Assembly (NCBI GenBank): GCA_977018835.1
Contig: OZ361258.1
Location: forward strand, 4,216,001-4,280,000
Length of the DNA: 64,000 bases
DNA from: Minutocellus sp. GHC0000111
Lineage: Eukaryota
Reading direction: 5' to 3'
A program made the translations under genes and the position numbers. The notes beneath the pieces are model-generated. The model had not been told where the DNA came from and did not search any database. It saw only the letters and a program-made list of their open reading frames with translations. Below, one piece after another: positions 1,586 through 41,666 of the stretch. Numbering within the stretch: position 1 is the first letter of the stretch; the number at the start of each line of letters is the position of its first letter.

Positions 1586-2601
1586 GGTTGCTTGGCTTTG
1601 CTTTTTTTTGCGTTGTTTTGCTTTTCGCATGAATTGCTGCTGCATTCTTTTGGTGGTCTCCGGGTTGTTTCGGCGATGTTGACTGATCCCAGGGGGGGGG
1701 GGCTCGAGGAGAAAGGGGAAGACAAGGGAACGGAAGGGACGGCGTCATGAATTTTTCTCTCCCCCTCTTTTTTTACTGTCGGGTTAATTGTTAATATAAT
1801 TGTAAAACCTGCCAGTAAAACGACAGCCAAAAAAGGTAATTTGTGAGACAATTTGTAATAAATATGATTCTTTTGACGAAACCTTTGTCATTTGTGATGC
1901 GTCTTTTCTTCGTCAGGTTAGAAAAACTGTCCGTCGTTCGTGTAAGGATCGGCAAATTAGCAGCATGAATTTTAAAAACTGCCAGCAAAATCACAATATT
2001 TTTCACCAAGTGTTGAGACAATTATTGAAAATTATTGCTTTTTAATTAGTTCCTTTGCAAATTCCAGTGACGAAGAGGGAGATCTGATCTTTCTTTGTTC
2101 AAGGCACCTTTGCATGTGCTGTCAAGGTGCGGCAAAAAGTGAATGCTTGCGCACTGTGCATTGCATCGCTGCATTTGAATCGCCAATTTGCATCTTTGCG
2201 CATCGAACAGTGTCGTGTATTGGCATGCGAGCGCATTTCATCCCGACGAACGATTGGCGAAGTCTCATCGAACAGGCAGGTGCTGCAACATTTATTTGGG
2301 CACAGCAAGTTCGGGTGCTGTTGCCACTACGTGTTTCGTCAGCCATTGTTTGATTGGCATCACACGGCATCGCACGGATTTCTCTGTTATTACTGACTGA
2401 TTTGATCGTTTGTGTTAGCAGCAATGTCGTTTTCTTATCCCGGGCGAGACATCCAAACACATGCTCTTTCGATGCCTTTCTTTGGGCAGAATCCCATAAC
2501 CAGCACATGGCTCACACCGTGTTGTGACACCAAGAAAGATAAGAAGTGCGGTCCTCGAAGTCATTCCACGAAATGGAGTTGGTTCCAATGGAAGAAATAT
2601 T

Positions 2602-3015
2602 TCATGATTGAGAGTAAACGACGGCATTAATGATTCGACTTTTCCCGGAGCCTCCTGGTCCAGTCATGAACATAATCATTTGCGACTTGCCTTTCATGGA
2701 TCTAAGCTCATTTTTCATTCTTTGCAGTTTGGAACGAGTTCCCGTTCGTCCTGTTTCCGGAGCAGGACCAAACTCTTTTGCATCCTCAATCCATGTCAGA
2801 ACAAAAGAACTAACAATGCATTTGAATGCTGAGGTCTGTTTCTCGTCCATGTGATGTCCTCGTGCCCAAGCTTTCATGGATTCCTTGGAGCCACAAGCAA
2901 TGTCAGGAATCTTAAGCTCATCATCATTTTCGAATTGCCTCTGCTTGTTTCGATAGTCACCTTCTTTTAGCCATAGCGTAACCAGTGTCTCTTTGTGCGT
3001 CTTGCTTCTCCCCAT
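2602..3015 (-). pseudogene. Truncated Helitron RepHel/Pif1-type helicase fragment (Walker A region)
   Basis: DEKQTSAFKCIVSSFVL..LRSMKGKSQMIMFMTGPGGSGKSRIINAVV, truncated immediately after the P-loop. Confidence 0.65.
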
Positions 3016-3079
3016 GAATGTTGGTTCCGATTCCGTTCTCTCTCGGCAGACTCTCTAGAAAAAAATACGGATCCCTTCT

Positions 3080-3821
3080 ATGCATGAACTCATGGTGTTC
3101 AAGAATATCTCTCAAAAACTGCAGAGATTGAAAGCATGTCTTGGTCGCTTGACGACTTCGAGCTCTCTCAGCTAAAATGCCGCTGTGCGTCTTGTTGCAG
3201 AGACAGGTAGACTCAATGCAAAACATTGCTTCTGACTGGAACGTGTCTCATAAAAGACTCACAAGACGGACACTTACAATTGTCTCTGTTATGGCCATTT
3301 GTGTTGTTCAAACACACACACCTAAGACCGGAAATTGCAGTGGTCTGACTCAATTGTCCTAATTGACATCCAGCAATGACCATGCCCTGCAGATGTTGCA
3401 GACTTGCAATGTTTTCATGATGTCTGCTTTCACAACTCAGAAACACATCACGACATTGCCACACCTGCGGTTGTGTGCAAACCCATGCAAGTCAACTTTT
3501 TCCAATTTGGCAAACCCGACGATGAATGGGACCAGACGTTTAACTATGTTCGAATCGACCGACACACCAATCAATCTCAGCATCAAGCAATGTTTGTGCC
3601 CTCCGTGATTTCAGGGCAAAAGGGAAACAAATTGTCCTAACATTGCTAAACTTTTGAAATGTTACAGCACTCATTTGGCGATCAGACACAATGACTAGTG
3701 ACGACACGCATTCGATCATGATCTCTCGAAAGTGTTTGCTAACTTCACAACAACGGACAATGCTCCCTTTCCCGCAAGATGGAAGAAAGGATGCAACAAC
3801 TCCCCAAGCATCGTTGCTCAT
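3080..3821 (-). pseudogene. Disrupted F-box-like protein fragment inside the Helitron-like region
   Basis: NDAWGVVASFLP..IVRCCEVSKHFREIM..VSSLVIVSDRQM..FSNVRTI resembles an F-box plus following region. The continuation is broken by frameshifts and stops, and is Cys/His-rich and Tyr-poor. Confidence 0.45.
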
Positions 3822-5765: not shown

Positions 5766-6043
5766 AATACCCTAAGTTATCCAAAATTCACCATGATAGA
5801 CCTATCATAAACTTAAGTTATCCAAACTTCAGTGTACTACATAGCTTTGTGAATGTCTACGTGTAGATAGACCATTAGAGAACCATAGCTCCAGCTCCAG
5901 CGGGAAATACCCTAAGTTATCCAAAATTCACCATGATAGACCTATCATAAACTTAAGTTATCCAAACTTCAGTGTACTACATAGCTTTGTGAATGTCTAC
6001 GTATAGATAGACCATTAGAGAACCATAGCTCCAGCTCCAGCGG
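5764..6043 (+). repeat. 140-bp tandem duplication
   Basis: 5764-5903 equals 5904-6043 except for G5863 versus A6003. Confidence 0.95.
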
Positions 6044-7195
6044 GGGAGCCCGTCGCTCCGCTCCCATATCCCCCCCTCCCCCGCACCCCCTTCCCTCCCT
6101 TTATCTGACACAAAAGAGCGGCAGACTTTCGAAAGCAAGCCGGAATCAACAATTTTTGCAAGAGACCCGGAGACCAACATAAATCAAAGCAACCTCGCCA
6201 GCTCTCTCACCACCTTTTTTCCTTGGTCATTGGCTAAAAAATAATCATTACGCCCGGTTTCGAACCAAAAGTTGATAAAGGCCTTATTTTCTGTGAGGAA
6301 ACATGTGCGATCGGACAACACTTGCACTTTTGGCAGTCATTCCAACGCATGCGCATTTTCGAGTGTTTTAACTGTGAGGGTTAGGGTTGTAATGAATTTT
6401 CGGTCTCGATCGACGAGATGCACGAAGACACCCCAAAAAAGCACATCTTCGACGAACAGTTCCTCAACAAACATGCAACAAAATTCGACCGCACTTGCAC
6501 CCACGAATGCGCAATCATCTAGTCTACCTGCTGTGCAAGTTTCATTGCCATCGGCGACCGCCTTGACAGCCATGTGTGCAAAGTCATCGGTGGTCGCCCT
6601 CATCATAAAAATCTTCATGGCTGAATATTTTGCGAGGCAAAAATTGAAGATAATATACATGGGAAGATTGTCCCGAATCAAACAAAAAAGGGGGTAGCCA
6701 AAATTTCACAGTAAAAGCCTGCCTAAAATGGCGATGCCATCCTCGGCCGGCTTGCTTTTTAGCACCAGAGTCTACATGGCTAACACATGCAACTGAAACA
6801 ATCGTGCAAAATTTTTCGATGCATGCATTTCTTTAAGTAACAACCCTAATGACCCTATGACTTTTGGAGGCAAGGTCCACCAGATCCCCCCTCCACTCCA
6901 CCCCCCACAAATTAATCTTGTTTACACAAGCTAAATTTCTAGTGAGGGCTCGGTTACCTCGAGCCAACTAAATGTCGCCGAACGCGCTGGATGGATTGAC
7001 TTGCTTGCTTGGCGCTTGGAGTTTCTGGGAGAAGCATCATCATCACACACAAAATCTCGTAAAGCAGTTCGCCGGAAAGGCGTGAATCATTCAATCATTC
7101 AAATAATCAGGGCGCAGGCAATTCACCACCACCCAACAAGCCACTTCACGCAAGGAACCATTTCGGTGGCAAGACGAAAGTCCCAGCAGATCGAA

Positions 7196-9958: not shown

Positions 9959-12900
9959 ATGTCGGAGATTCCCTCGATGAGCCCAAACCGGAGACGGAGG
10001 CGGATGACGTCTTCGGTGAGGAGGCCTAATGATAATTGTTGTGCGGAATCATCCTCCACCGCATCGCCCCCGTCGTCGACTAGCAGTACCGCCGGCATGT
10101 CGTCGCTATGCCTCGGCCTTGCCGTTTTTCTGGCCCTCCCCGCCCTCGTCGGCGGAATGACGGCCAATCCCCGCCCGTTCGTCACGACGCACGGGCCAAT
10201 TGTTGATGAAAGTGAGCCCGACAAGAAGGCTTCGATCACCCTCCGCCTGAATGGCGATCCGACCCACCATTACCTCACCGACCTCGATGGTTTCACCTGC
10301 CTGATGAACGAGGAGACGGAATACTACCACTACGCCGTCCGGGCTTCGTCGATCGACACTGCTCAACAGCACGGCCATCCCGACGAGCTGGTGCCGCACC
10401 CCACGGCCATATGTGGATCTCTCACCAACCCCCTCGAGGAGCTGTAGGGAATTGATGGCAGGAGAATGGTCCCGCCCAAGTCCATCCGATTGGATCAGTG
10501 CGGTCGGTACTGTGCTGATCGGGAGGAGCGGATCGAGAGGAGGGAGCGGGAGCGGGAGCGGCAGCTCTGGGCTCAGGACAAGGGCGAAGTAGAAGAAGAC
10601 AAGGAAAGGAGGATGCTCCGTGGTAGTGATAGTGACAAAGACATGGATGGCAGTCTTGCCCATGTCCCTACCATGATCACCGGCGATCCCCTCCACGTCG
10701 TTCCGGCCGCGTCCCTCGAATCCAGGTCCAACTCTCCCAACCAAGAAGGGGAACCAACCGCCTCCCAGATCCGTGCGTCCATTCAGCACCAGCTCCAAAA
10801 CCAGGTCCGGCACCTGACCGGTTCGTCCGGAACCCTCCGCTGCCTGGTCATACCCTTCAAATTCTCCGACCATACCAACCGCCCCCTCCCCACCAAATCG
10901 GAACTGCATATCATGATGGGACACGACGGCCTCCACCCTAAATACGCCCCCACCGGTTCCGTCAGGTACGCCCTCGACGAATTCTCCTACGGCAACCTCG
11001 ATCTCGATCCCGTCGTTTGGGATTGGGTCACCCTGTCGCAAACCGAGTCCCATTACTCCGGCGTTCAGCAGGGGGGTGGCATGGGACTCGGTACCTACTT
11101 CCACGATGCCCTCCGCGAGGCTCTGGCCATCCACAACAATGCCCGTGCCGACTTTAAGCAGTTCGACGTCAAGGAACACAACGGAGCCGGAGATGGTTGG
11201 ATCGATGCCATCCTCTTTCTCCACTCCGGATACGGTGCCGAGGGAGGCTTCACCGACTGCAACGGTACGCCGATGCAGGCGTTGATTTGGTCTCATGAGT
11301 GGAGCTTTCAGACTCCGTGGACCAGTCACGACAATGTCAAGGTCGGCAAGTATGCCGTGAACAGTGCCGTGTACGGCAGCGGGATGGAAGATCTGGACGG
11401 AGATGGCATTGATGACTGCACCGGCTATCCGTGCTGTGCCAATCCCCCGCCCATTGCTAGGGTGGGCAGTCTGATCCATGAGATTATGCAGTGAGTCATT
11501 AATTGGTGTATACATGCATGTGTTAATCATGCCGATATCCCAATTTGAAGTGCGCCCTGGGTGTTTTATGATTGGATTGTGCCTCACCCATCTCCCCCTT
11601 TCATTATCTAATCCCTCCTCCAATCAATTTCCCCAACAGCTACCTCGACCTGCCCGATCTCTACGACTCCGAGGGTGGGGTGAGATGTCGTTGACATAAA
11701 GTTTGATATCTGATGCATCTTTACCTCCAATGTCTGCTCACCACACTCATGTTATATTGTCCTCAAAACTTCTCCCCCATACTCCGAAAAATTACAGTTT
11801 GGCGCCGGCAGCTGGGCAATCATGGCGAACGCCTGGGGACACGATGACTCCCAGAAGAACTGTCCTCAGCTCAGTCCCTGGTCGAAGTCGGCGTTTGGTT
11901 GGATGAAACAATTACTCGTCACCCAGGAGGGTACCTACGAGATCGACGCCAGCTGGGACACCAACGAGGTGTACCGTATCAACTTCGGCCAGCCCCAGGC
12001 CAATGCCAACGGCCGAGTGGATGAGTATCTGCTCATTGAGAACAAGTGGACCGCCAGCTTCGAGAGCACCATCCCCCAGCCCGGCCTCGTCATCTGGAAC
12101 GTTGATGCCAAGCAGAGGCAGGGCAACGAGAACGAGGGCTACCCCGGCCAGCCGGGCTACCCGGCCAATGGCAATGGGTACATGGTCAGCGTCGTCCAGG
12201 CCGACGGCAAGTACCAATTGGAGAAGGGTATCAACGAGGGTGATGCCTTCGATGTGTTTCACGGGGACTTGGTCGATGAGCTAGTTCCTCCATCCGATCC
12301 GAACAATCCCGCCGGTGGGCCTTTCCCCAACACCGCGTACGTGACCCCCTCCCGTGTGCTCCGAGATACTGGCGTTCGAATTTACGACATCATCAAGGCC
12401 GGGCCGATGATGACCTTCAAGGTTCAATTCAACTACCGCACTCCATCCAGAAACAACCCCTACGGTGAGAGGAAGCTCTATGGTCCGTTCGATGGGAACA
12501 ATAAGAACTCCGGTGTTATGTTTGACATGATGCCGCAGACAGACATGCGCATCACCGGCTTCGACGTTCGTATGTTCTCCACAAAGACCCATCGCTTCGA
12601 GGTGTACTACAAGTACGGCACTCACGTCGGCCATACCAACAAGAAGGAGAGCTGGACGCAGCTTGACGATGGCAATCTCAACGTCCAATCACTCGGACCG
12701 TCCAAGAAGACACCACTTACCGGTTTCCAAGCCGTCCCAGTGAGCAAGAACCAAAAGGTTGCCTTCTTCATCGCTCATACCGAACCAGTGATGAGTCGGG
12801 ATGATCTCTACCTGGCCTATTCCAACGGTCAAATCACCAACGACAACAAGGATACCTGGATGAACCAGGTTTGGTTCCAGAACGAGGATCTAGTCGTTTT

Positions 12901-14197
12901 CCAAGGCACCGGACAAGGTTATCATCACGAATTTATCAACCCAAATACCTTCCCCGCGCGAAATCCCAACGTCGTTGTTCACTATGAATATGGTTTGACG
13001 CAAGCGGAGCCAAGGCCTGTCACTCAACTTACCACTGACTATTGCAAGGCATCACCATGCCAGAATGACGCAACCTGCACCAACAAGCCAAGTGTGCAAC
13101 GTGGTTACGAGTGCCAATGCTCTTCTGGCTGGGGTGGCCCGACTTGTGAGACCGATAATGTCGATGGATGCGTTGGAAGCCCATGTAAAAATGGAGGGCA
13201 GTGCACTGACACATCTTCCGGTCTTGGTTTCTCCTGCTCTTGCCCCCAAGGGTGGGACGGAGACACCTGCGAGGAGGACGCCGATAACGGGTGTGCTAAT
13301 AATCCCTGTGAAAATGGCACATGTGAAGACTAGTCTGAAGGCATCGGCGCCTACAATTGCATTTGTGAGGATGGATGGGGAGGAGACAACTGCGACATCG
13401 ATACAGATAATGGCTGCCAAGGTTCCAATCCTTGCAGCAACGGAGGCACCTGCCAGGATGAGACCGGCCCTGGAGCCTTCGCTTGTATTTGCGCTGCGGG
13501 CTGGGACGGAGACACATGTGAGGAGGACATTTTAGACGGCTGTGCATCAAATCCATGTGTCCAGGGTACCTGTGAAGATACCTCCGATAATGTTGGATAC
13601 AGATGCATCTGCTCGGACGGATATACTGGTGACAATTGTGACGTGGCTCCGCCAACCGAGCCTCCCCCACCACCAAGATCCGACCCAGCCCCTGGTCCAT
13701 CGGCGACCTTTATTTTCAAGACCAGTCTCGACGAAGGCAATAACCAAGCCAAGGGCAACATGTTCGATATCTCGGCCGAAGGCTCCGATCTCTGGCTCAA
13801 GTCGTTTTCAATCCACGTCGATGAGCCCGGTACGCAAGTACCCGTCAAGGTATATGTCAAGGAGGCGTCCTACGTCGGCTCGGAGAATAGCCTCAATGAT
13901 TGGACGTTGATTTGCTCTACTACGCTGACGTCGGCAGGACCACAAGCACCCACCAACATTCCACTCGGTGTCTGTACCGAGCATCAGATCCCACAGAATG
14001 AACGACACGGAGTGTACATTGCTGTTGATGCTGACGCCGACGCTCACATGATCTACACATCAGTGGATCCCTCGCCGAACGGAGTTCATGCTACGACAGA
14101 ACGATTCGTCATCCATGAGGGCATCGGCAAGGGCGAAGATATGGCAAACTCGTACGGCCCGAGTAGACGATGGAACGGAGAGCTATACTATGGATAG
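9959..14197 (+). CDS. M6 (immune inhibitor A-like) metalloprotease with five EGF-like repeats and two beta-rich domains; two in-frame TAG stops (10445, 13331), possibly a pseudogene
   Basis: Removing introns 11491-11639 and 11680-11797 gives HEIMHYLDLPDLYD..GAGSWAIMA. Also DGWIDAILFLHSGYGAE, EYLLIEN and GLVIW motifs. The CxxxPCxNGGxC EGF repeats continue in frame across the TAG at 13331. Confidence 0.85.
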
Positions 14198-14444: not shown

Positions 14445-15488
14445 TCACTTCTCCCTCATACCGGCAGCCCTCTTTGCTTGAATCTTTTGGCATTTGCCAA
14501 CATGATCAGGATATGCCGCAGCTTGGCATTCGACGCTGCAGTACCGATCGAGGTGACACCCACCACAGCGCTTGGTTGTAACGCCTACCTCTTTGGGACA
14601 GTTCGAATTGGTGCACGGTTTCGCTGACCAGTAGCAGGGGCTGCATAGAAACTTTTTCTTTGGTTTACAAAGAGAGCTTGCGTCAAGACTACTTGAGCAT
14701 GTAAGGACAGAAAGAAGACCACGAGCTACGAACCGAGCCCTTTCTTCATCGAGGCACTGGTAGCAGTAGGATGCGCTGCAAGAGGTGCAGGTTGCGTATG
14801 AGTCGGCATCCTTCCTCATGACTTCCATGGCGGCAGAAATGTCTTCCTCGAACATTGCAATGCCAAATAAGGTGCTTTCGGCGATTTCGATCAGGGCAGA
14901 CATGGAGTGGTGATCCACGGCCGAAGCCACATCGCGACAGGACCCACACCGGCCCTTCGCACAGGAGATACACCTCAGCAACCGAGATACGGGAACATCA
15001 TGAAAGCAGAAGTAGCACTCCATTTCCATGCAGCCATGTCCACCACAACTGGCAAATGGCAATGCATGGTTAGTGAATCGGTCATCATGGCAAATACGCT
15101 CACGAAAGATCCCCAAGGACTCCTTCGAAACAATAACCTTCCCCATGTCGTTGTATGGAACTGTGTCCTTCGGTGAAATCGCTTTCTTCACTGTCCTGCT
15201 GCTGGTGCACTCCTTGCAACGACGCGTTGGATCGACGCAATGCATGCCATTGGGGCACTCGGCAAAGAACTTCCGCTCGCAGCGCCAGCAATACAGGAGC
15301 GAACAGCCAGGACAAGCATGGGCTCTGCTCAGGTCCTTGAGACTTGCAAGGCATCGGAAACACTTTTGCTTCTTGCTACTACTGCCGCTGGCCAGGATAC
15401 CGCCGCCGCCCCCACTATCGCCCAACGTGTCCTTACCACCATTAACTGCGGATGAGGCATTAGATGCCGCTTTGGACTTCTTGCCCAT
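14445..15488 (-). CDS. Cys-rich protein with a C-terminal MYND zinc finger (paralog A)
   Basis: Starts MGKKSKA. Many CxxC motifs. C-terminal RCGGCHLDRYCSVECQAAAYPDHVGKC. Confidence 0.85.
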   Translation of the reverse strand: MGKKSKAASNASSAVNGGKDTLGDSGGGGGILASGSSSKKQKCFRCLASLKDLSRAHACPGCSLLYCWRCERKFFAECPNGMHCVDPTRRCKECTSSRTVKKAISPKDTVPYNDMGKVIVSKESLGIFRERICHDDRFTNHALPFASCGGHGCMEMECYFCFHDVPVSRLLRCISCAKGRCGSCRDVASAVDHHSMSALIEIAESTLFGIAMFEEDISAAMEVMRKDADSYATCTSCSASYCYQCLDEERARFVARGLLSVLTCSSSLDASSLCKPKKKFLCSPCYWSAKPCTNSNCPKEVGVTTKRCGGCHLDRYCSVECQAAAYPDHVGKCQKIQAKRAAGMREK

Positions 15489-15624
15489 GGTATCGTTGGA
15501 GTTGCGTGATCTGCCGATCTGCCGATCTGCCGCCGGTATGCAGGTAGTCATCCAACAGTCAAATATCTTATTTTCGGTATTTTTGAACCATTTTTTCCAC
15601 GCGACCAGCGGCCGACAGCCGACG

Positions 15625-16974
15625 ATGACGCAGGCAGGAGAGCTTGCCGCCATTCCGCTCTCATTCTGTAACGCACCGGCCAGCATGCACTCAACAACAC
15701 CCCTCCGCGTACCCGTACTCACATTTCTCTCACGGTCGCCGTCGGCATCTCGCCAGTCCTTACGACTGCTCGAGAAATTGACCAGCGTCCAACCATTGGA
15801 TGATGACTCATCCTCATCGTCATCATCATCGTCGTCTTCTTCAGCTGCTGCTCAACGAGATGGCCTCGATGCCTCCGTCTTTTCATCGGCGTTGCTGAAG
15901 AACTACAGCTTTGATTCGGTTGCCTCGATATGTCCCAAATCGCAGGTGGTGATTCATTTGGTATCTATAGCAGACGGTCAAACACAATCATCAAATAAGG
16001 ACACCAATCAGGCTACCAGCGGCAACTTCCTCTCGCTGTTGTCGGTGACAGACGATGGCAGTTCATACGACAAAGCAGACAAATCACTGCAGCATTCCAG
16101 AGATTATCTATCCAAAAAAATGAAGGGCGGTGGTGGGATGATGTTGGGTGCTCAGTTGGCCATGCGAATGAGAACGAATGACAAGTATCCCGTCGAGGCG
16201 CATCACTTGCTGGAGGGGGATTTGCCGAAGTTGGATTTGTCTTGTCTTGCGAAATACAAGAACAATGGATCTCCGTCCCAACGTGAATCAGAATCAGAGA
16301 CTGGCATCAGCGCAATCCGTGAGCTGGTGATACCCGCATTTGACAATTTGATCCAATCCCAACTATCGTCGTGCTCGGCTATGACCAGGCCCAAGTTGGG
16401 CCTGTATCTTTGGCCGGGCAATGACTCCAATAATGGCCTCGTCATCCGACCGCTGCCATCGGCCGCCGAGGATAGGGAGCTGTCTCCTCCGTCTATTGTG
16501 TTTCAGTGCGACAACCTCGAATCCTGCGTGGAAACATTGAAAGGGAATGCAGCTGCGGACAATACCAACACTGCTCTGGCCAAGGTTGGATTCTCGGGTT
16601 GTGGTACTGGTGGACAGTACATGATTCGGAATAGTTTGTTGGATGGCCTTGATATTCGACTATGTGACACGACCGAATTGTCGAGTTCCTTTGCCGAGGC
16701 ACAAGAGGCATTGCTTGCGGCCAGTCTGGACGAGTTGCAGTCGGTCAACGTTATGAATGAGGGCAGTAATGATGGGAGAAATACTACTGACAAGGACAGC
16801 GGAAAGTCTCGGGAAGGAGGAAGCGATGCCATGAACGGACTTGGAGATTGCTGGGTGGAATTCCGGGCGAATGTAAAGAAGCCTGGTGGGTTTTTTGGAC
16901 AAAAGGGTGGTATTGCCGGAGGATCACGACGGAAGCCAGAGGTGGCGAAGGCTCCTGATATTCCGTATGAGTAA
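15625..16974 (+). CDS. Uncharacterised protein (start at 15625 or 15685)
   Basis: Long ORF with protein-like composition ending SSSFAEAQEALLAASLDELQS..GDCWVEFRA..PDIPYE. The upstream part of ORF 15028 is antisense overlap with paralog A. Confidence 0.7.
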   Translation: MTQAGELAAIPLSFCNAPASMHSTTPLRVPVLTFLSRSPSASRQSLRLLEKLTSVQPLDDDSSSSSSSSSSSSAAAQRDGLDASVFSSALLKNYSFDSVASICPKSQVVIHLVSIADGQTQSSNKDTNQATSGNFLSLLSVTDDGSSYDKADKSLQHSRDYLSKKMKGGGGMMLGAQLAMRMRTNDKYPVEAHHLLEGDLPKLDLSCLAKYKNNGSPSQRESESETGISAIRELVIPAFDNLIQSQLSSCSAMTRPKLGLYLWPGNDSNNGLVIRPLPSAAEDRELSPPSIVFQCDNLESCVETLKGNAAADNTNTALAKVGFSGCGTGGQYMIRNSLLDGLDIRLCDTTELSSSFAEAQEALLAASLDELQSVNVMNEGSNDGRNTTDKDSGKSREGGSDAMNGLGDCWVEFRANVKKPGGFFGQKGGIAGGSRRKPEVAKAPDIPYE

Positions 16975-17081: not shown

Positions 17082-18059
17082 CTACTCTTTCCCAGCGGCA
17101 GTCCTCTTCTCCGATATCTTCATGCACCTCCCAACATGGTCAGGATATGCCTCGGCCTGACACTCGACGCTGCAGTACCGATCGATGTGGCACCCGCCGC
17201 ACCTTTTGGTCGGAATACCAACCTCGTTGGGACAGTTAGGGTTGGTGCAGGGCTTGGAGACCCAGTAGCAGCGGCTGCATTGAAATTGTTCGCATTCGTC
17301 TACGCCGTTCCTTAGTCCATTCAGAATGCTTCTTGCCATAATTTGAATGCCCGTGTCGTCCATGCAGGATAAGCAATATCCGATGCCTCAACCGCTGCAC
17401 AGTGCAAGCGTTTTGGGCTGTTGCTCGCGCATAATTGCTGCGGCCTCAACGACAATAGATTTTGATAGAGTCTTGCCGGCAGAACCCAAAAGTTCGGGAA
17501 ATTTCATTGGGATGACAGAATCATAGTAGTCTTTCTCCATGCAATCGAAACAGCGGATACCCGAGCAGACGGAGCAACTCCACATCTTGCCGTTATTAGG
17601 AGCGGCAACGCATCGGTAGCACTCCTGAACCGAGCAGCCGTCGGCCTCGCACTGCTGAAGGGGTATGGAGTCAATGTTGCACTTGCTGCCTTCCTTACAT
17701 AGCTGCAACAGATCCGAACAACTTACTCCCTCATGTTGGATTCCCTCCTCGTCGACACACCTGATCGCTCTGGCAGTGATGCCACTAGAGCAACCGTGGC
17801 ATCGCTTCAGGGGATGCGCGCATGCGCTCCCGTTGGGACACTCCTTGAAGTACTTCCTCTCGCATCTCCAGCAAAACAGCCCGCCCGAGAGCTGATGACA
17901 TCCGTGGCATTCGTGAGCCTTGGTCAGGTCCTTGAGCAGAGTGAGGCAGATGACGCAGCGCTGCTTCTTGACGGTGCCGCCGGTGCCATCGGATACCGGA
18001 GTGCCCGCCGGCGCAGTCGCTGTGGACTTGGTCGCTTTCGCCTTGGACTTCTTCCCCAT
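17082..18059 (-). CDS. MYND zinc finger paralog B with an in-frame TGA at 17390-17388
   Basis: Starts MGKKSKA and is colinear with paralog A. ORFs 17388..18155 and 17082..17363 are in the same frame, separated by CSG*GIGYCLSC. Confidence 0.8.
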
Positions 18060-18315
18060 GGTAGCGGTCGCTGAGAAGGGGTGATGCCCGAGCCGATACG
18101 CCGATATCCCTTGCCGATATTCTGCCTGCTCAATCAGCTCCAGCCATATGGTCATGCGATTTCAAACTAAGAAACCCGGAGAGCTTGCTTCAATCATTTC
18201 GTCGTTCGATCGAAACACATGAGAGAGCTAAAGGGCGCGCATTGCAGCATGCGCAATGGCGGCAAAGTGCGTATGCGCCTCTCGTGCGTCACAGTAGCAC
18301 CCATCATTTGTTCCG

Positions 18316-21110: not shown

Positions 21111-22103
21111 GGTGGTCAGTGGTAGTCTGAGCTGATGATGATATGGATTGATTTATCAATCAGAAGAAGTAGAGCAGAAGAAAGTTCCGTGCATCATGCG
21201 CACACATGATTTTTGGTGCCGGAGGGCCTTTTAGTTTTGCGACCGACTCCAGAAATACTGCCCGGGCTGAAAACGTGACGGCACACGATGTCAACGATAC
21301 TTCAATACCGTGTTCGAGCTCATGCATGCGAGGGCCTTTCTCTTCTCGACGTCCAACCGTCTTACTTTCATTGCCGCATGCGCAGTAGCGCAAGCAAGCT
21401 CCCATCATGATGACTGGGAGCTAAAACCTCACGGCCAAACGGGACATCAGAGTCGAGTCGGATGAGGCTAGTAGTAGGTACCTTCTAGCTAGAGGTATTT
21501 CGTGTAGGTGAGACGAGACATTGTACGATCAACATAAGCCCCTCGGTCATTTTTCAACTCTGCATGGAGCGCTTTTCGAGCCCGACGGTCGGACAGAGGC
21601 TGCCTCCCATTGCCGGTTGGCCCGACCGCCATTATTAAGAGGGCGCTGTCCATAACTTTTAGGAAGCCCCCAAAAAGCGTGTTTTGTGCCGTTTTTTCTT
21701 CGCACCATCGCCAAAGTTAGCACTCCAACGTGACAATGGGCTCCTCATCGAAGGCCGCCGCTCTCCACAGTGGCGAAGAGTCATCGACGTTCCTTTCAGC
21801 ATTAAGTCGGAAATTCCTCCAGGAACACTTGGTTCAGAGGAACTTCGATGAATCAACTCTCCCTCAGAAACGCAACAGTCGACGTGCACATCATCGTCGG
21901 GTCGACCGAAGTTAGTCTCGGCCGACGCATGACCAGCATTGGTGGTGCTGGTGGGAAGATGTCTTGAAGTTTTGCTGTTGGGAGGTAAGGGGATATTTGT
22001 TTGGGGCATTTTTGCACGTCTCCCTCATTTGGGGTTCTTTTTGTAAGGCTCTCATCGAAAAGCGTGTCTTGCGCCAGAACCGACACAAAACAAAAAAACA
22101 ACC

Positions 22104-24326
22104 ATGGAAACATCACGTGCTAACGCCAAGGAGGCAATCCTCTCACTCTTGCTCTCATTCCCAGACGACGTCAGATGTGCTTGCTACACCATTGATGAGC
22201 TTGTCCGTGTCTTGATGCGCGGTGGCGTGTCGCCGAGCTTAGAGATCTCTCTTGTTCGATCATCTCTTCAACGCGTCCCAACACGACACGAGGTCAACAT
22301 CCAACGACGACGTCCAGAGAAAATGTCAGGCCTTGACGTTGCAAAGCCCTTCTACCGCTTCTCCAGAATGGCCGATGACGCCAGCCCACGCTCTCAACGC
22401 AATGGCAAGCGATCACTGCCGACCACACCTGAAAATTGCTTCCAGGACGATGAAAAGCATGGGCCCCATCTCAACGCGATGCTGAAACATTGTTCCGACA
22501 AGAGCTCTTCGGGCGGTCGGTCATCTACTCCCACCGCCAACGCTGCCGATCGTCCCAACATCACCGGCGTGCAGCTCAACGGCAAAAGAGTTGTGGTTGA
22601 GATGAAGCAGCTGTGTGATTTCGTGCAGAATCTCCACCGATCGTGCGGCAATCTGTGTCTCTCGGCTGAGCCAGTTCGGCGTGGATTCGGCGTTGCATTT
22701 GAATGGCGATGCGATAGATGCAACCAACCTTTTTCTTTTTGCACTTGGATCGGCCAGAGGTCAGAAGTTGTGTGCCCCGGCAGAAAGCACTCTAGAAGTC
22801 AGGCTGGAATGAACTTGGAGCTGATGGAGGCAGCGGAAGATGAGGCCATGCACGCAAGTCGCTTCATGAATTTCTGCACGAAGGCCGACATCGTCCATCC
22901 GACCGAAAAGAATGCCCGACAGGTGGAAAAGAAATGCAGAGCAGCGGCTGTTGAAGCAGCTGATGAAATCATTGACGAGAGTGGGGCAAAAGCACATGCC
23001 GCTAGCAGCAAGACTGTTGAGTTTGAACAAGGCGGCGAGATGCACACGGCGGCGGTGGTCACGGTGGCCCAAGACGGCAGCGCCCTCAAACGCGACTACG
23101 GCCATTGCTACACTGGCTCTGCTGCAGCGGTGTTTGCCGTAGACAAGGAAACTGGCCTTGTTGTTGACAAGGGAATCTCTCAGGCAAGCTGCCACCATTG
23201 CGTGAGAGCCTGCAATGCAAGATTGAGGGAGAGGCGGGAAGCCGGCAATCCAATGACGCCGAGTGAGCTCAAAAACATGAGCAAGGATGAGATGCTGGCC
23301 CTGTACGACCATGATGGCTTCTGCTATCGCAACTCTTCCTACTCCCCCGGTGTGGCAGAGGAGCATCTGGCCGAGAATGTTGGGAGTTGAAAATTTTAAT
23401 GCCATCCCCCGACCACGCATCAATCGGATGAAACAGGACATTTCGAAGATTACTGATCGGCACAAGCACAGCGTTCTCGATCAGCCCGATGGTGCTGTGT
23501 CCGAGGAGGAAAAACAAAGTCATCTGGCCCTCCTTCAGAAAGAACTCCAGTCCGTCGTTCGTCACCAATGTGGCATTCACACTTTTTGCACCACCAACAC
23601 GTGTGATTGGATATTCGCCTCAGCATTGCTCATCCTGATTGGAGTGATGGCAAGCTCGATGAGGAATGGAGCTCGGGGAATCAATTCGATGGCGACATAT
23701 TGGAGATTAGTGACGACACGATTCGCAAGATGACGCTTGAAATAACCAAGAGAATCAACAAGAATACTGCCGACTCCAACTGCAAGAAGGAATCTACCAC
23801 CGGCGTCGAACAGCTCAACGGGATGGTGACGAAGTTCACGATGGGGAAAAGGCCGAATTTGACTGCTTCAGACGCCTACCCAAATGCAACAAGTAGAGCC
23901 GCTGGCCACAAGTCACTGGGTACGGAATTCAATGAGCGAGTTCTTGGAAAGTTGGGATCGAGGGATTCTCCTACCCGAAAAGATGGATTCGATGCAATTG
24001 ACCGGAAGCTCGAGGGCGACCTTGCGCGTAAGCGCACCGATGAGTACAAAAAGAGCAAGAGCGACAGCAAGCGCCTTCGAGCAGCCTTGCGAAGCAGAAG
24101 CGAGAAAGACGACAAGGACTATGTGTACAAGAAGAACAGGGCCCTAGCTGCTGGTAAGGCGAAACCAGCAAAGCCTGGCCGCAAGAAGAAGATTGACCAG
24201 CAGTGTCAGAAATGCAAGCAGCTTGGCCACACTCGGGCTGAATGTCAATGCGACGATGCTGACGACGTTGTCGTTTACGCCGAAAAGAAGCGCAGAAGCC
24301 CAGGCAGCAACAAGAAATCTGCATGA
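22104..24326 (+). pseudogene. Kolobok/Mutator-like DDE transposase, internally deleted and frameshifted
   Basis: VTVAQDGSALKRDYGHCY (first D), ETGLVVD..SCHHC and HDGFCYRNS..GVAEE motifs. Break at ~23390 where the second-D region is not seen. HQCGIHTFC zinc motif, TTGVEQLNG (putative E) and C-terminal knuckle CQKCKQLGHTRAEC. Confidence 0.8.
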
Positions 24327-35184: not shown

Positions 35185-35833
35185 CTTTCTCGTGCTGCAA
35201 TTCTTTGTACCTGAAGCGAACGTAACTCGGTTCGTCATGTATGTATGTGCCAGAATCATTTATCAGCGAAGAAATGGAAAAGGAGCACAAGCGCTGGATG
35301 GGAAAGGACGGCGAGATATCTTTTTGAGAAAGGATATCTTTGGGTGAAGTGAGCGAGAAAGATTACTTCAGAAGAGCCTCCTATCTTGTCTGGCGAGAAC
35401 GCGAACGTGGTTGATCTTATTCGAGATAACTGACCAAGCCAAGATCAGGCATCTCGCATGCAGCAAGGAGCTGGTCGTATTCTCTGCCACTCTCTGCAAG
35501 TGAGTGCTAAACATCCCTCATCGGCGAGGCTTGAAAATGACCATTTTCCTACACAAAAGACACCAAAAGCCATCAACAATTATGGCCCCCATTGCCGGGG
35601 CTGGAGTGTGAGTTTGTGTCGCGATTGTTATGCATAAGAGTCCTCTTTTCCTCGGGGTGTTGCTTTTCTTCGATGAGCCGCCTTGGCAGCTTTGCTCGTG
35701 ACAACCACTCAGCCATCCAGTCCACCAGTCCATTCAAACCGACGATACGAGACTTAAAGTTTTGGAGACGAGTCGGTCCAATTGTCACCCAATACAAACT
35801 CCCAGCAAGTCTCGCCCACAGCCCGCCCCAACC

Positions 35834-36503
35834 ATGGCCGGCCAAACAACAGAAGGAGAAGTCGTTCGCGAAACAACGCTTGCAATCGATGCTCGCTGTG
35901 CCTCCATCGTTGTCGTGCCGAAATCAGGTGAAGCAAACGATGCGAACATGCCGAGAAACCTCCATAATGCGGCGGAGCTTTTCCTACGTGTTGGAATGGT
36001 TGAAAACGCGGAACGAGTCAAGGACAACACCGGTCGGATGCTGGACATGTGTTCCGACAGACAATCCCGACGGCAAAACGAACGTCAAGATTGGGCAGGG
36101 CTGCGTTTGCTGGTCGTGTGGGTTCTGCGGTTTGCCCAAAGGTGGCGGCGAGAGCAAAGTAGCACCGGGAGGGAAGAAGAACAAGATGCCGAAGACACCG
36201 CCAGGACCGTGCGGAAATTGTGGAGAGACAGATCAGATCAACTACGTGCGAGTGACACGAAAAGGCATGGACGATCTTCCGTGGATTGAGGCACCACCGC
36301 TGACCGAGGAAGAAAAGAAGAAAAAGAAGGATGCAGAATTGGCTGCCAAGAGGAGGGAGGTCGAAGAGCAGGTGAAGAAGGCATTGGAAGACAGGAAGAA
36401 AGCTGAAGCGAGTGCTGCACAATGCATGGCGATGCAAGGGAGCTTCATGCCTGGGCAGCAAGCTGGGCAGGGAGTTCCTTGTCTTCCAATGTGTCTGGAT
36501 TGA
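35834..36503 (+). CDS. Uncharacterised protein with a CxxC zinc-ribbon-like domain; frameshift near 36056 and possibly a read-through C-terminus
   Basis: MAGQTTEGEVVRETTL..PRNLHNAAELFLRVGMV, then in a shifted frame CVCWSCGFCGLP..GPCGNCGETDQIN..LPWIE plus a coiled coil. Confidence 0.65.
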
Positions 36504-36714
36504 TTTGTGCCATGTCACATAAAAGGAATATTTTTTAAAACACAACGACATTGTGCCTGCAGCCGGTGGACACCCACCTCTCACTAGTGCTCAAGTTTTT
36601 GGAGCGAGCGCACAGTGATCTATCCATCGAAAGGACGAATGCACTGCGCTTTCAACCCGTTGTCGAGTTGGGTTGTTGGCCACTGTCATTCTGGCGTGGC
36701 GCATCGCGATCGCG

Positions 36715-39506
36715 CACAGCCCCATCTCGTCTTGTTTCGCCGGTCGGATGAAGCGTTTTTCGGCAGAAGACGAACACGTCACGAAGAAACCCACCAAAAC
36801 CCAATCTCGTTCGTCACCCACTCTTTGACCATCCAACACCATGGTGGTCCGTCGGCGTTGCGCCGGCGCACAACTGTGTTTTTGCACCAAACACGCATTC
36901 ATCATCATGTTTGGACATAGTTGAAGCTTGCTGTGTCCTCAGATTGGCCTCCGCTTCGCATCAACGCCACGAACCATCGGCCTGCTTTTCCTCCATCTGT
37001 CGGCCGTTCGTTTCTCTGGGGTGGTGCCATTGCTCCGTCTTTGTGCTCGTCGTGCTCCCGTTGTGATGCCCCAGACCCTCTGGTGCTTTCCCACGTTGTT
37101 GTTGATGACAAACTGCCGGGATTGCGCCGCACCCCCCGTGTGACCGACTCTCGCTGATCCCGACCGATCGCATCCCCACTCGACCTCCCGGAATTCTGCA
37201 ATAATTTTGCGCCCGAGGAGAGACAGATGGCATTGGGATAAGTTTATGCAACAATCAACCCGACAAAGGGACTTTTTGGTCTCTGGGAGACAAATGGGTG
37301 AGTTAAGAAGGACGTGATGTGTTTGTTTGGGTGCACTATTTACTTTTTTGCTCAATCGCGATGCTGTTTGTAAAAGTTGGACCATGCAATTCATTTGTTG
37401 ATGTGTAGCAGCAGTGCAATTTCATTTTCTAATTTTACACATGCCCTGCTCCCATCTCTACATCCTCATCTCCATCGGTGGCCATCATGATCATTTGTTG
37501 GCGCTTGTCATCAGTTTCTGCTTTAACAGCTTCGGTCCTTGTCCTTTTCCTTGTTCTTGCCACCCGAGAGTTTCGCTCCCGCCTCTCCTCGACCTTTGGA
37601 TTGGATGCCCTCTCCTCAGCCTTGAACTGCGCCGTCTGTTGGGCCTCATGTCCCTTGACGCCCTGAGTCCGACGATCTTCCTTAACGCCCTCTTGGTGGG
37701 CTCGCTCTACAAACGATTCGTCGAGCCAATGGATGCCGCCCCATCCATTCTTCACTAGCCAAATGTGTTGGTCCAAGATGTGATCTTCGAGCAAGTGCCA
37801 CTTGGGCGTTATGCTAACGCCGATTGCCCGTGCTTGCTTGAGGGCACTTGCAATCAATGCTTCAAGCTCTCTCACAGCCTTCTTTGCCTCATCATCCCAT
37901 TTCATGCACCATTTCAGAAACCTGGAATGCATTGCGTCAAGAGTGTGGAGCAAATTAGAGCAAGCTTTGCAGAGCTCTTTGATGTCGTCATCCGTCATGC
38001 CATCTTCCTCGCGATTGTGCTCTAGGAGAGTTCCTTTGGTGGAGGTGTTGTGGTGGATGAACTCTGTTGTCCTTGGTTTCTTCTTGTTGTTGCCATCAGA
38101 AATGTTAATAGATGAAGCTCTCCAGCATTCTGCCAGCACTGCCCTTGTTTTACCTGAGTCGGCCGCCTCAATGCCGGCCTTTTTCAGGAAATGGAAGTGA
38201 GGGGCGTCGTCGTCCTCGGCATCATCGACAGCTCCCATCTCTGGCTCGCCATCACCGTGCTTCTGACGATTCTTCTCAAAGTGCTGCTGCATGCATGCTT
38301 CATGTGTAGCGTCCTCTCTTGCAACATCAGCTTCGTCCTCACAACAGCGCACACAGTCCTCGTCTTCGTCGTCATCGTCCTCACTGATCTCGCCGGCCTC
38401 CGTCGTGGTCAGGGTGCCCACCGTCCCAACATCGTCGTCATTGTCCCACCCATCGTCCTGGCCATTACACCCACCAGGGAACTTCTGGGCCTCGAGCAAC
38501 ATCTGCCTGTTGATTTCGTAGTCCATCGCCGCATGTCCCACCGACACATGTGGTGCGACCGACTTGAGGAATGCACCACATGCCTTCGTCAAATTGAGCC
38601 GCGGCGGCGGTGTTTCGAGGCGAAATTGTTGCTCGACCGTGACCATGTCGAAAGCCATCCATCCATCATCATGGAGAGCGTCGGCTGCACGAGGATTGAC
38701 AGAGCCGAGGCGAACAAACATGCTCTTTTTGCATGGGGTTCGCTGAACGTCGTCGGCAAGGCAGTGTCTTGATGCCATTTCATCCCATCCATTCTGGTTG
38801 TCTGTCCTCACAAAAAACACGTCGCAGTCTTCGTGTTTCTTCTTCTTCTTCAAACCCAAGATGCCCGCAGTGCACATGACGGCGCCGCACGTGATGGGAC
38901 TGCATCCCAACACATTCATCAAGGAGTTTATCTCCCAGACCAAAAAGTCCCTTTGTCGGGTTGATTGTTGCATAAACTTATCCCAACACTATCTGTCTCT
39001 CCTCGGGCGCAAAATTGTTGCGGAATTCCGGGAGAGGTCGAGTGGGGATGCGATCGGTCGGGATCAGCGAGAGTCGGTCACACGGGGGGTGCGGCGCAAT
39101 CCCGGCAGTTTATCATCAACAACAAAGTGGGAAAGTTCCAGAGGGTCTGGGGCATCACAACGGGAGCACGACGAGCACAAAGACGGAGCAATGGCACCAC
39201 CCCAGAGAAACGAACGGCCGACAGATGGAGGAAAAGCAGGCCGATGGTTCGTGGCGTTGACACGAAGCGGAGGCCAATCTGAGGATACAGTAAGCTTCAA
39301 CTATATCCAAACATGATAATGAATGCGTATTTGGTACAAAAATATAGTTATACGCCGGCGCAACGCCGACGGACCACCATGGTGTTGGACGGTCAAAGAG
39401 TGGGTGACGAACGAGATTGGGTTTTGGTGGGTTTCTTCGTGACGTGTTCGTCTTCTGCCGAAAAACGCTTCATCCGACCGGCGAAACAAGACGAGATGGG
39501 GCTGTG
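36715..39506. mobile_element. Chapaev/Transib-like (CMC-related) DNA transposon derivative with ~575-bp TIRs and a 4-bp CGCG TSD
   Basis: cgcg|CACAGCCCCATCTCG at 36711-36729 and CGAGATGGGGCTGTG|cgcg at 39492-39510. Inverted identity extends over 36715-~37293 versus ~38928-39506. Confidence 0.88.
37435..38973 (-). pseudogene. Chimeric or deleted ORF ending in a CMC/Transib-type transposase C-terminus
   Basis: SITPKWHLLEDHI..GGIHWLDESFVERAHQEG shows the H-x4-H motif and a putative catalytic E. The N-terminal DD region was not recognised. Only 1 Tyr in 512 aa. Confidence 0.65.
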
Positions 39507-39662
39507 CGCGGGCGGATCCGAAGAGGGTCTGTTCGTCGACCGAGCAAGCAAGAGAGCAAGTGCGAATAAGTGACTGCAACAACCATGATGGAATGATGGA
39601 ATGATTGATCCTCCCGGCACAGCAGGAATTCCTATTGGTAAGCCGCTAATAGCAGTCGCAGC

Positions 39663-41666
39663 ATGACGCTCTCGCCTCTACCGCTCATTCTCTGCCTGTT
39701 ATGTGCCGGAACTCAATCCACGTCTACGATGGCTGCGGAGCCATCTGCCCAATGCAATGACAACGACAATGGTCAGTGCGACAACACATCTGAGTCACCC
39801 AGCGTCTGCGGCCTCTATCTAGCCCGATCGTCAATCCCCAACTCCGGCCTCGGGGTATTTACTGGTATTCCTCACGAGATCGGCGCCGTCATTGCTCCGC
39901 CAGAAATAGCCCACCAGCTCCTCGTTGGGTTCGATGATGCCGATCCTCAGCTCCATGCAAGCTCTGAATATCACAATTCCTTGGTACGGCAGTACGTTTG
40001 GTCGTCGTTTGTTTCGGGAGGCTCGTTCGAGGCGTCAATGGTAGAAAGTCTGATACCAGGAATAGGCATGGCAGCCAACCCCTTTCTCCCTCTCATCAAT
40101 GCAAGGAGTGTGATGGGTTCCATTGATTCGGCTGGAGTTGTCGGACGAGAGCATGGTAGTCCTGGAGCAGGTGCCTTCTCATCCTACCACGATATGACCT
40201 ACGTGGCCGAGATGTCCCTCGAGGCAGGGTCGGAGATCTTTGCTGACTACGGCGACAGCTACTTTCGGGATAGACCTGACACATACGGCTTGATCCCACT
40301 TGTGCAGGAATTTCGACGAGCAGATGAGATCATGAAGGGATTGTGGGAAGCTCTGCCGAACAAGGATGCTCCCATCGGTGAAGAGTGGCAGCCCTTCTGG
40401 AATACCGTCCGCAATTTAGTTGAAGACGAGCGGACGCGAAATGCCCTCCCATCGTCGGTGTCGGAAATCAAGCGGGCGGCTACGAGAGGAACACCCTACA
40501 ATTTTTTACGGGGTGACAATCCGAGGTCATTGGACTGGTTGCAGACCAATGGACTATGCATCGACACGCTAGAGGTGAAGCCATCAGCCATTCCACATGC
40601 AGGTCGAGGTGGCTTTGCAAAGAGGTCCTTTGCGACTGGCGAAACGATTCTACCCATGCCCATGATGCAGATATCTCGAGAAGCACTTCGCATTTACAAG
40701 GGAGAGGGTGAAAATAACTCTGAAATATACAGCCAACAGCAACTCTTGAATTACTGTTTTGGCCAAAAGGACTCATCAATGGTTCTCTTTCCCTACTCTT
40801 CTACGTCGAGTTTTGTCAACCATGGCGGCAAACATGCCAATGCCAAGATAGTCTGGGCAAAGGAAGGGACCGATGTCACTGGATTTCATAGGGATGCGTG
40901 GATGGAAAGAAGCCCCGACGAATTGGTTCGGGAAGGGTATACTGGATTAATGATGATGCTGGTAGCTACTCGACCCATCGTCAAAGGTGAAGAAGTCACT
41001 ATTGATTACGGGCCAGAATGGCAAGCTGCGTGGGAAGATCATTCGGCCCGCTGGTCGAAGAATGACGACTCGTCCGAGACAGATGGCGGTAGTCCCTTGA
41101 GTGCATCGGAATTGAACGAGTCAGAGGATCGCATCCGAACTATGTTTGAAGAATCATACGAGTCTGTTGGGACCGCAGGCCACTATCGTTATGATTCAAG
41201 CGAGGATAACGAGCAGATGGCCATACATGTCGAACCAGGTCAGGAGCTTGATGGACACGAAGCTCTTGGACTCGTTTATGACGAAATAGCTCCAGAACAG
41301 CAGCGTAAATCCTATGTCGCCTACATCGAAGAGAGAGCTACAGTCTGGCGTGACCACGGTGGACGTGCCACTATAAGTGGTGATAATTTCAGGCCTTGTG
41401 CACTTATTGCGAGGAAGGAGGGAGCATCGCCGAACGAGGATCTTTACACAGTGCGGGTATTCAACAGTCAGAATGGAGCTGGGCACAACGAGCAAATCCC
41501 CACACACCGCGAGCACTATGTGAAAGAAGTTCCAAGGAGAGCAATTCTATTTGTTGATTTGCCCTACACCTTGAGTCAGCACAACGAAAGTGCGTTCCGA
41601 CACGAGATTGGGTTCCCTGATGCCAGCGACGATATGTGGCCAGAGGCATGGAAGGATCTTCTTTAG
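39663..41666 (+). CDS. Signal-peptide-bearing protein with two SET-like domains
   Basis: First SET-like block CGLYLARSSIPNSGLGVFTG..GSEIFADYG. Second block VKPSAIPHAGRGGFAKR..FVNH..IVKGEEVTIDYG. Confidence 0.82.
   Translation: MTLSPLPLILCLLCAGTQSTSTMAAEPSAQCNDNDNGQCDNTSESPSVCGLYLARSSIPNSGLGVFTGIPHEIGAVIAPPEIAHQLLVGFDDADPQLHASSEYHNSLVRQYVWSSFVSGGSFEASMVESLIPGIGMAANPFLPLINARSVMGSIDSAGVVGREHGSPGAGAFSSYHDMTYVAEMSLEAGSEIFADYGDSYFRDRPDTYGLIPLVQEFRRADEIMKGLWEALPNKDAPIGEEWQPFWNTVRNLVEDERTRNALPSSVSEIKRAATRGTPYNFLRGDNPRSLDWLQTNGLCIDTLEVKPSAIPHAGRGGFAKRSFATGETILPMPMMQISREALRIYKGEGENNSEIYSQQQLLNYCFGQKDSSMVLFPYSSTSSFVNHGGKHANAKIVWAKEGTDVTGFHRDAWMERSPDELVREGYTGLMMMLVATRPIVKGEEVTIDYGPEWQAAWEDHSARWSKNDDSSETDGGSPLSASELNESEDRIRTMFEESYESVGTAGHYRYDSSEDNEQMAIHVEPGQELDGHEALGLVYDEIAPEQQRKSYVAYIEERATVWRDHGGRATISGDNFRPCALIARKEGASPNEDLYTVRVFNSQNGAGHNEQIPTHREHYVKEVPRRAILFVDLPYTLSQHNESAFRHEIGFPDASDDMWPEAWKDLL

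Follow-up and report, generated by a model that had tools for sequence, protein, structure and literature searches.

What process leaves the two terminal inverted repeats (TIRs) of one transposon differing chiefly at sites where one copy reads TA and the other CA or TG? The question is posed by an element lying in a 64-kb stretch of DNA (64,000 nucleotides; hereafter, the window) from the diatom Minutocellus sp. GHC0000111. An earlier note on this DNA had proposed a repeat-targeted hypermutation that removes TA, a "reverse RIP" serving genome defence. The features on which the analysis bears are collected in Table 1.

Table 1. Features of the locus and of the other TA-poor stretches, with positions in the window (o/e, observed/expected).
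Feature	Position	Strand	Remarks
Decayed P-loop-coding remnant between short repeats, helicase-like	2001..3800	-	TpA o/e 0.31, CA/TG 1.46
Mutator-like transposon (PF20700), same signature	21900..24300 (approximate)	+	TpA o/e 0.28; 11 Tyr to Cys/His vs P0282
Approximate TA-erased domain	35800..39200		Host-gene start to inside right TIR
Conserved single-copy diatom host gene, TA-erased, broken	35834..36416	+	~193 aa in relatives
Probable 4-bp target-site duplication CGCG, left copy	36711..36714	+	
Non-autonomous DNA transposon, CAC...GTG ends, high-copy family	36715..39506		TpA o/e 0.27 vs 0.65 in rest of window
Left TIR, heavily mutated	36715..37294	+	4 TA remain of ~19
Transposase-derived ORF	37435..38988	-	1 Tyr; most of catalytic core absent
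Right TIR, near family majority	38927..39506	-	16 TA kept
TA-rich TIR patch, 11 TA in 67 bp	39286..39352		TA in family majority; single copies with 5-10 changes
Probable 4-bp target-site duplication CGCG, right copy	39507..39510	+	

The element and its terminal repeats

The two TIRs, 580 bp each, differ at 23 substituted positions and by two 2-bp indels, and their alignment reaches 4 bp further outward through a palindromic CGCG. The counts made by hand in the earlier note (about 23 substitutions, two 2-bp indels, 14 differences of the TA type, 13 with TA on the right) held in this alignment: fourteen differences are single changes between TA and CA or TG, 13 with TA on the right and one with TA on the left (37202). 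Two further sites (36959-60 and 37231-32) have CA in one copy and TG in the other, also as reported, and the remaining differences comprise two transitions at CpG, one transversion, and a pair reading TG/AA where TA was ancestral; transversions make up 2 of the 23 differences. The cluster of ten TA-type differences within 36869-36935 on the left and 39286-39352 on the right was likewise recovered. It had been read as patchiness of the process, but it mostly reflects where the TA targets lie, because 11 of the 16 TA sites of the right TIR (the left has 4) sit in 39286-39352, ten of which are missing from the left counterpart.

A random transition would toggle TA at 18.7% of the positions, so that 14 or more such changes among 23 have a probability of 9e-6; the destruction of a right-TIR TA, open to 5.5% of the positions, gives 6e-10 for 12 or more of 23. 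The load was unequal, the left TIR having lost 15 of 19 TA and the right TIR having taken two transitions (P = 5e-5, one locus). Per base, TA changed at a rate ~48-fold above elsewhere in the TIR pair, a figure that presumes that the TIRs were once identical, since at 39017 only a minority carries TA (29-49% in three runs), and 38987-88, for which a TA majority was not accepted, is a three-way polymorphism.

The element, deleted and non-autonomous, derives from a RAG1/Transib-like family of DNA transposons. In contigs of the public sequencing runs, other copies match up to 39506 and then continue into differing flanks; at this one insertion no 5-bp duplication fits the element ends, and only the 4-bp CGCG pair does. 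Compared with other members of the family, the right TIR is extended, and it takes the place of the family ORF's first ~47 codons: contigs have loose ends inside it at 38927, 39020, 39034 and 39190, and the first 20 codons of the window ORF are TIR read-through, where other copies run into a 47-residue N-terminus (loose ends; P0016). The ORF spans 517 codons from stop to stop and 512 from the first Met, and its single Tyr and abundant Cys and His, already pointed out, were counted as 1, 16 and 22 in 496 residues. The match to the RAG1-like relative P0013 (70%) is confined to residues 299-491 of the 496-aa query and, in P0013, to residues 369-561, the C-terminal ~190 residues of the core.

No Pfam family was found above the cut-off for the element ORF, P0008, P0013, P0045 or 17 of 18 remote relatives, DUF1280 being matched once above the cut-off and once below it among these relatives; PDB sequence searches returned coiled-coil matches only, and the Atlas lead to RAG1 scored 0.88, below the 0.9 line. 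P0013 has 533 remote homologs and conserved Asp, Cys, His and Glu motifs, and the RAG1 core was the best match of its predicted model (pLDDT 82): structural matches included VIA (Z 17.8, rmsd 6.0, 341 aligned), BbRAGL (Z 15.6) and HzTransib (Z 10.2), and the Foldseek matches to RAG1 had E 1.7e-3, with none at 1e-3 or better. The RAG1-type catalytic core fold predicted for P0013 and the CAC...GTG termini of the element are shared with RAG1/Transib-type DDE transposons, whereas the 4-bp duplication, the 580-bp TIRs and an ORF with only the C-terminal part of the core are not. Transib duplicates 5 bp of target, and a 4-bp duplication with CAC ends is known from Chapaev; the element was not filed as Transib because its target duplication is 4 bp.

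The family comprises dozens to >100 copies. The window ORF belongs to clusters that count 23, 57, 30 and 70 proteins encoded on long contigs, and in four runs the main contigs of the element had tens of times the depth of its flanks, a depth that is not copy number. In JGI metagenomes, 585 stretches yielded no locus with DNA copies of the element, and a second scan of 82 stretches gave three loci at 38-55% identity, which were not used.

Direction of change and recurrence

To polarise the changes, contigs of five public sequencing runs were aligned to the window, a comparison in which depth under-counts heavily mutated copies. Among the 40 differences listed, out of 122, 21 element positions departed from the window in about half or more of the depth of run X1: twelve restored TA and none removed it, five restored A before T, two restored CpG and two were transversions. 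Four of the five A-before-T differences can also be read as CpG decay. Over the aligned right-TIR stretch, with all 21 of its differences taken into account, no CA/TG majority was found at the 12 TA-versus-CA/TG sites, and none of the 21 fell at the CA/TG site 36959-60. Within the TA-rich patch, the seven minor variants were all TA>CA or TA>TG (0-16% of the depth), and low-depth contigs carried 5-10 changes per 63-89 bp.

The protein comparison covered 71 family copies plus the window ORF, taken from 82 proteins (at most 15 listed per cluster), and nine outgroup proteins, the N-terminal outgroup states depending on P0008 alone. Variable columns of the family held Tyr/Cys/His, Ile/Met/Thr, Ile/Val or Asn/Asp/Ser, with the Tyr/Cys/His and Ile/Met/Thr triads where the outgroups carry Tyr or Ile. 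Since a Tyr codon can reach either a Cys or a His codon in one step, and Cys and His codons lie two steps apart, TA is the ancestral state. At 12 outgroup-Tyr sites, 431 observations comprised 327 Cys/His, 83 Tyr and 21 Phe; at 17 outgroup-Cys/His sites, Tyr appeared in one of 731.

The direction is therefore loss of TA, by A>G on either strand, and run majorities and outgroup proteins agree with the earlier proposal in this respect, as they do on the conversion of Tyr to Cys/His and on a polarity opposite to that of RIP. A family consensus with CA/TG as the ancestral state, the check that had been named against this direction, was not what appeared: the runs have TA in the majority and the outgroups Tyr or Ile.

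Of the copies, 51 could be scored at a minimum of six out of 14 sites; these showed 49 distinct patterns, and 35 of 61 site pairs had all four Cys/His combinations, which argues for recurrent hits or recombination and not for a single inherited event. The Mutator-like element, compared with its less mutated relative P0282, owes 22 of 60 differences to TA loss, its Tyr count falling from 18 to 7, and across Mutator copies Cys/His occupied 142 of 234 Tyr-site observations, with the reverse (Tyr) in 7 of 303 Cys/His observations. TA erasure is thus recurrent, having struck independent copies in two DNA-transposon families that are unrelated to each other.

These data also bear on the opposite polarity, in which a RIP-like process or CpA-methylation decay would have created the TA of the right TIR on an originally TA-poor element. 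Diatoms do encode DNMT4, related to fungal RID (PMC9998398), and the 7 of 303 Mutator observations with Tyr go in that direction. The polarisation by DNA majority and outgroup proteins nevertheless refutes it and leaves it next to no probability: the family majority is TA, the transposons are TA-poor and not TA-rich, the outgroups have Tyr or Ile where the copies carry both Cys and His or both Met and Thr, a combination that requires an ancestral TA, and Tyr counts are normal in P0008 (15) and P0013 (14).

Target context and extent of the erased domain

All composition figures come from this 64-kb window. TpA o/e was 0.27 in the element, 0.28 in the Mutator-like transposon and 0.31 in the P-loop remnant (whose P-loop matches were sub-threshold only), against 0.65 elsewhere, and 52 one-kb windows elsewhere had a mean of 0.64 and a minimum of 0.42; the concentration on transposons that had been claimed is borne out on this scale. 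In the TA-poor mobile stretches CA/TG o/e rose to 1.26-1.46, versus 1.13, CpG o/e was scarcely lowered (0.83-0.94 versus 0.97), and AA and AT steps were almost the same as elsewhere. GC-biased gene conversion was rejected, G+C being 0.53 versus 0.52 and AA not being lost.

The retention of TA relative to host DNA was 0.15 in RTAY, 0.46-0.47 in RTAR and YTAY, and 0.96 in YTAR, a gradient that matches the expectation for TAY being hit on each strand, and a pyrimidine followed the A in 11 of the 13 left-TIR losses. The preferred target is TAY, best TAT or TAC. A weaker class of A>G changes fell outside TA, at AAT (3.0%, 9 of 20 sites), CAT (1.5%), CAA (1.0%) and GAN (at most 0.2%), with no change at AAA (0/991) or AAG (0/1340). 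A small CpG>TpG class was also present (36831, 37197 and 36883/39338), with 0.68% compared with 0.2% at CC/CT.

This weaker class is where an error-prone, polymerase-eta-like enzyme (WA>WG), copying transposon regions in repair or gene conversion, could be recognised. Polymerase eta prefers WA, and AAT is the strongest context outside TA; in addition, private variants that both TIRs have in common (36883/39338, 37140/39081 and 36821/39400) suggest copying between the TIRs. The unchanged AAA and AAG sites, the undepleted AA steps, the rarity of transversions in the TIRs and the confinement to TpA of the mutations reported from Bigelowiella natans (bioRxiv 10.64898/2026.01.13.699255, main text) speak against such a polymerase, which we regard as an improbable cause.

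The gene on the left side of the element shares 86% identity with a protein of Minutocellus polymorphus, which makes a cymatosiroid diatom the probable host, and the 14 closest homologs of the gene are 91-97% alike. Over the first 75 codons, six of the eight differences from P0117 and P0105 are TA losses and one is A>G at AT; homolog P0083 also has Cys at one of the TA-loss sites. I43M was dropped as a TA loss, runs X2 and X6 carrying ATC (36185). A 4-bp duplication at 36056-36063 shifts the reading frame; it may have been left behind by an element that has since excised and had attracted the mutation to this gene. No stop stands at the homologous place; it was possibly lost by TAA>CAA one codon further on. 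Run X2 has CA in place of TG at one TA site of the gene, and among the differences listed for the public-run contigs none pointed to an unmutated second copy.

Runs X1 and X10 carried the mutated allele of this gene without a single difference, over 765 and 622 bp, which counts against an assembly artefact, as does the presence in X1 of the private letter of the window at 36883 at a depth of 11.3 (flank 11.1). Confirmation is incomplete in that, among the differences listed, no run had the right-TIR letter of the window at 39338 on the right side.

Equally, ADAR-like editing of a hairpin RNA, later written back to DNA, could be imagined for a 580-bp TIR pair able to form double-stranded RNA, and several of the matching runs are labelled RNA. 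However, the left-TIR losses read on one strand comprise 4 A>G and 9 T>C, and the occurrence of both in one TIR indicates a change at the DNA level and not in RNA; the flanking single-copy gene was hit as well; and DNA transposons, of which this is one, move without an RNA step. We consider RNA editing or an artefact very unlikely.

The fraction TA/(TA+TG+CA) was 0.073 in the left flank, 0.085 in the element, 0.179 in the right flank and 0.207 in the rest, and none of 518 sliding windows elsewhere was as TA-poor as the left flank. The right flank with its SET-domain gene (39642-41666) had normal TA (0.179 versus 0.207, P 0.37), whereas on the left the erasure extends ~900 bp into the single-copy host gene. 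Because the TIRs took 15 versus 2 transitions and a single-copy gene was hit equally hard, the target looks like a region and not a repeat pair, and the repeat pairing that "reverse RIP" implies is not supported. At this one locus, the domain appears to end on either side close to where a neighbouring gene starts.

Mechanism and comparison with known systems

What the locus records is A:T>G:C transition at TpA on both strands, at the DNA level, regional and recurrent, and reaching one flanking host gene. As its cause we lean towards an enzyme that deaminates adenine in DNA and is directed to silenced chromatin. Such an enzyme, for which a TadA/ADAT fold would be the candidate, would convert the A of TA, best in TAT or TAC, to inosine, and the inosine would be fixed as G upon replication; the base hit would be A and not its paired T, deamination of A and modification of T giving the same sequence. 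Whole regions of chromatin would be targeted, and their edges would fall close to where genes start. The TA-rich TIR patch is probably kept by selection, as transposing copies would need it, and ORF damage would be carried along in copies mobilised in trans. TA loss makes no new stops, and decay is therefore by missense (Tyr>Cys/His, Ile>Met/Thr/Val and Asn>Asp; four control ORFs that were out of frame, with internal stops, were left out of the codon table), so that mutated copies can still move in trans. Against a deaminase stands the minor A>G class outside TA, the AA-side component of which would suit an error-prone polymerase. Of the genome defence proposed earlier, the loss of TA on transposons stands; the defensive role itself is an inference, the mutation having left the family abundant.

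The same letters could be written by a modified base. Oxidised thymine mispairs with G. Wherever silenced DNA carried a modified base at TpA, that base would be a mutagen in the way that 5mC is for CpG decay, making the erasure a by-product of an epigenetic mark; it could be thymine oxidised by TET/JBP (5-hydroxymethyl- or 5-formyluracil:G, T>C) or N6-methyladenine that undergoes deamination. This fits every sequence result, including the regional spread, and has a parallel in dinoflagellates, whose transposons carry 5hmU made by a TET/JBP enzyme, with a preference for TA and TC steps according to earlier work (PMC11572971). The 5hmU passages of that paper, however, concern silencing and not mutation, diatoms are unmentioned in it, our literature search found no report of 5hmU or TpA 6mA in diatoms, and a 5'-T preference fits ADAR-type deaminases according to Mettrop et al. 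(bioRxiv 10.64898/2026.01.13.699255, main text). We judge a modified base to be unlikely, if a good deal less so than the polymerase.

The deaminase reading can be widened, tentatively and with more doubt than belief: diatoms would have a dedicated chromatin-guided DNA adenine deaminase that edits double-stranded genomic DNA at TAY. It would be a heritable system against transposons, held in common with Rhizaria and so perhaps ancestral in SAR, which would mark regions up to the next active promoter, could wreck neighbouring host genes and would select for transposon ends that keep a TA-rich binding patch. No proven enzyme for natural genomic A>G editing in any genome-defence system was found in our literature search; if the reading is true, the deaminase would be the first natural DNA adenine editor to serve genome defence, and base editing would gain a new source of enzymes. 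The TAY motif can be used to test candidate enzymes, and as diatoms are transformable and editable, the enzyme can be sought directly. Estimates of diatom transposon ages, consensus proteins and GC bias are distorted by TA erasure.

RIP, in Neurospora and other Pezizomycotina, is a dinucleotide-specific transition hypermutation of transposons that acts on both strands and leaks into flanking single-copy DNA; it changes C>T at CpA, so that TpA is gained, mutates both paired repeats, and needs the RID methyltransferase and a sexual cycle. The signature in the window is likewise dinucleotide-specific, on both strands, on transposons and with leakage into a flank. Unlike RIP, it loses TA (by the 327 of 431 against 1 of 731 protein observations) and makes no stops, and its paired TIRs were hit 15 versus 2, with no sign of homology pairing.

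Diatom transposons are also marked with 5mC (DNMT5), which leads to CpG decay (PMC9998398). The passages concerned describe the same target class, transposon islands, and the small CpG>TpG class of the window agrees with them, whereas CpG is hardly depleted here (0.83-0.94 versus 0.97) and TpA is down to 0.27.

TpA hypermutation as such is already described in one unrelated alga. Where the earlier note could name no described pathway, the signature had been reported by Mettrop et al. (bioRxiv 10.64898/2026.01.13.699255), with no enzyme or pathway shown there either: in Bigelowiella natans, integrated viral DNA undergoes TpA>TpG/CpA hypermutation, measured de novo at ~1000x background, the targets being integrated NCLDV and virophage DNA and the activity being confined to some lines; transposon Pfams are enriched among TpA-poor genes, and an ADAT2 homolog is proposed, not shown, as the candidate deaminase. 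This 2026 preprint on viral inserts in a chlorarachniophyte is the one measured precedent. Its main text has no mention of diatoms or stramenopiles, and no description of the signature in either was found in a literature search that covered open papers and the main texts of preprints.

As far as the main text of the preprint goes, both cases have A:T>G:C transitions at TpA on both strands, TpA depletion with an excess of CpA and TpG, and foreign or mobile DNA as the target (TpA o/e 0.27-0.31 in three stretches here, with one adjacent host gene as the exception), and the B. natans process acts on single-copy DNA. To this the window adds polarisation by runs and outgroups and the TIR asymmetry. 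It differs from B. natans in its host, a diatom and thus a stramenopile, and in its copy-by-copy targets in two DNA-transposon families; in a TAY preference with a minor ApT class, the main text of the preprint being without an analysis of flanking bases; and in an erasure that spreads into a host gene, wrecked beside the insertion.

Ends and variant copies of the transposon

The inner edge of the terminal inverted repeat (TIR) of the RAG1/Transib-like transposon differed between family members, falling within 38927-39190, with loose ends of the run contigs at 38927, 39020, 39034 and 39190. Three private variants were common to the left and right TIRs of the window copy, which suggests that one end served as the template for its counterpart. 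In some family copies a short telomere-like repeat stretch was joined to the TIR (loose ends at 39020, sequencing runs X6 and X10), and deletion derivatives without about 210 bp (37367-37579) were detected in three runs.

The adjoining host gene and A>G changes at ApT

A transposon that duplicates 4 bp of its target could have left the 4-bp duplication in this conserved gene as a footprint when it excised. When the run contigs were aligned to the window, one X6 contig showed four gap letters across this stretch and may be without the duplication. At six positions (38206, 38212, 38821, 38891, 39400 and 35928) the window carried G where other copies had A before T, a possible second and weaker A>G class, at ApT; for four of the six, CpG decay within the family is an alternative reading.

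Repeats and genes elsewhere in the window

Features of the window outside the transposon
Feature	Position	Strand	Remark
Cys-rich zinc-finger-like duplicated genes	ORFs 14445-15851 and 17388-18161	-	
Large secreted multidomain gene, metalloprotease-like and EGF-like stretches	9959-14197		Split across several ORFs; named by inspection
4-bp direct duplication	36056-36063		Frameshift in conserved host gene
75-nt repeat, four copies	1803, 4036, 4175, 4307		Around TA-poor P-loop remnant
Tandem repeats	4602-4859		Inside 460-codon ORF
140-nt tandem pair	5764-6043		

A 209-nt stretch of the zinc-finger-like pair (14448-14656 versus 17082-17290) was 75% alike, and TpA was normal in these genes, which represent a repeat without erasure. 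The 75-nt repeats, the tandem repeats and the 140-nt pair all surround the TA-poor P-loop remnant, and this stretch (1800-6050) is possibly one composite mobile element.

Low-tyrosine remote relatives

Tyrosine was very low in two remote relatives of the transposase, P0271 (0.33%) and P0279 (0.64%), and cysteine plus histidine was high, suggesting that the same erasure has acted in other genomes.
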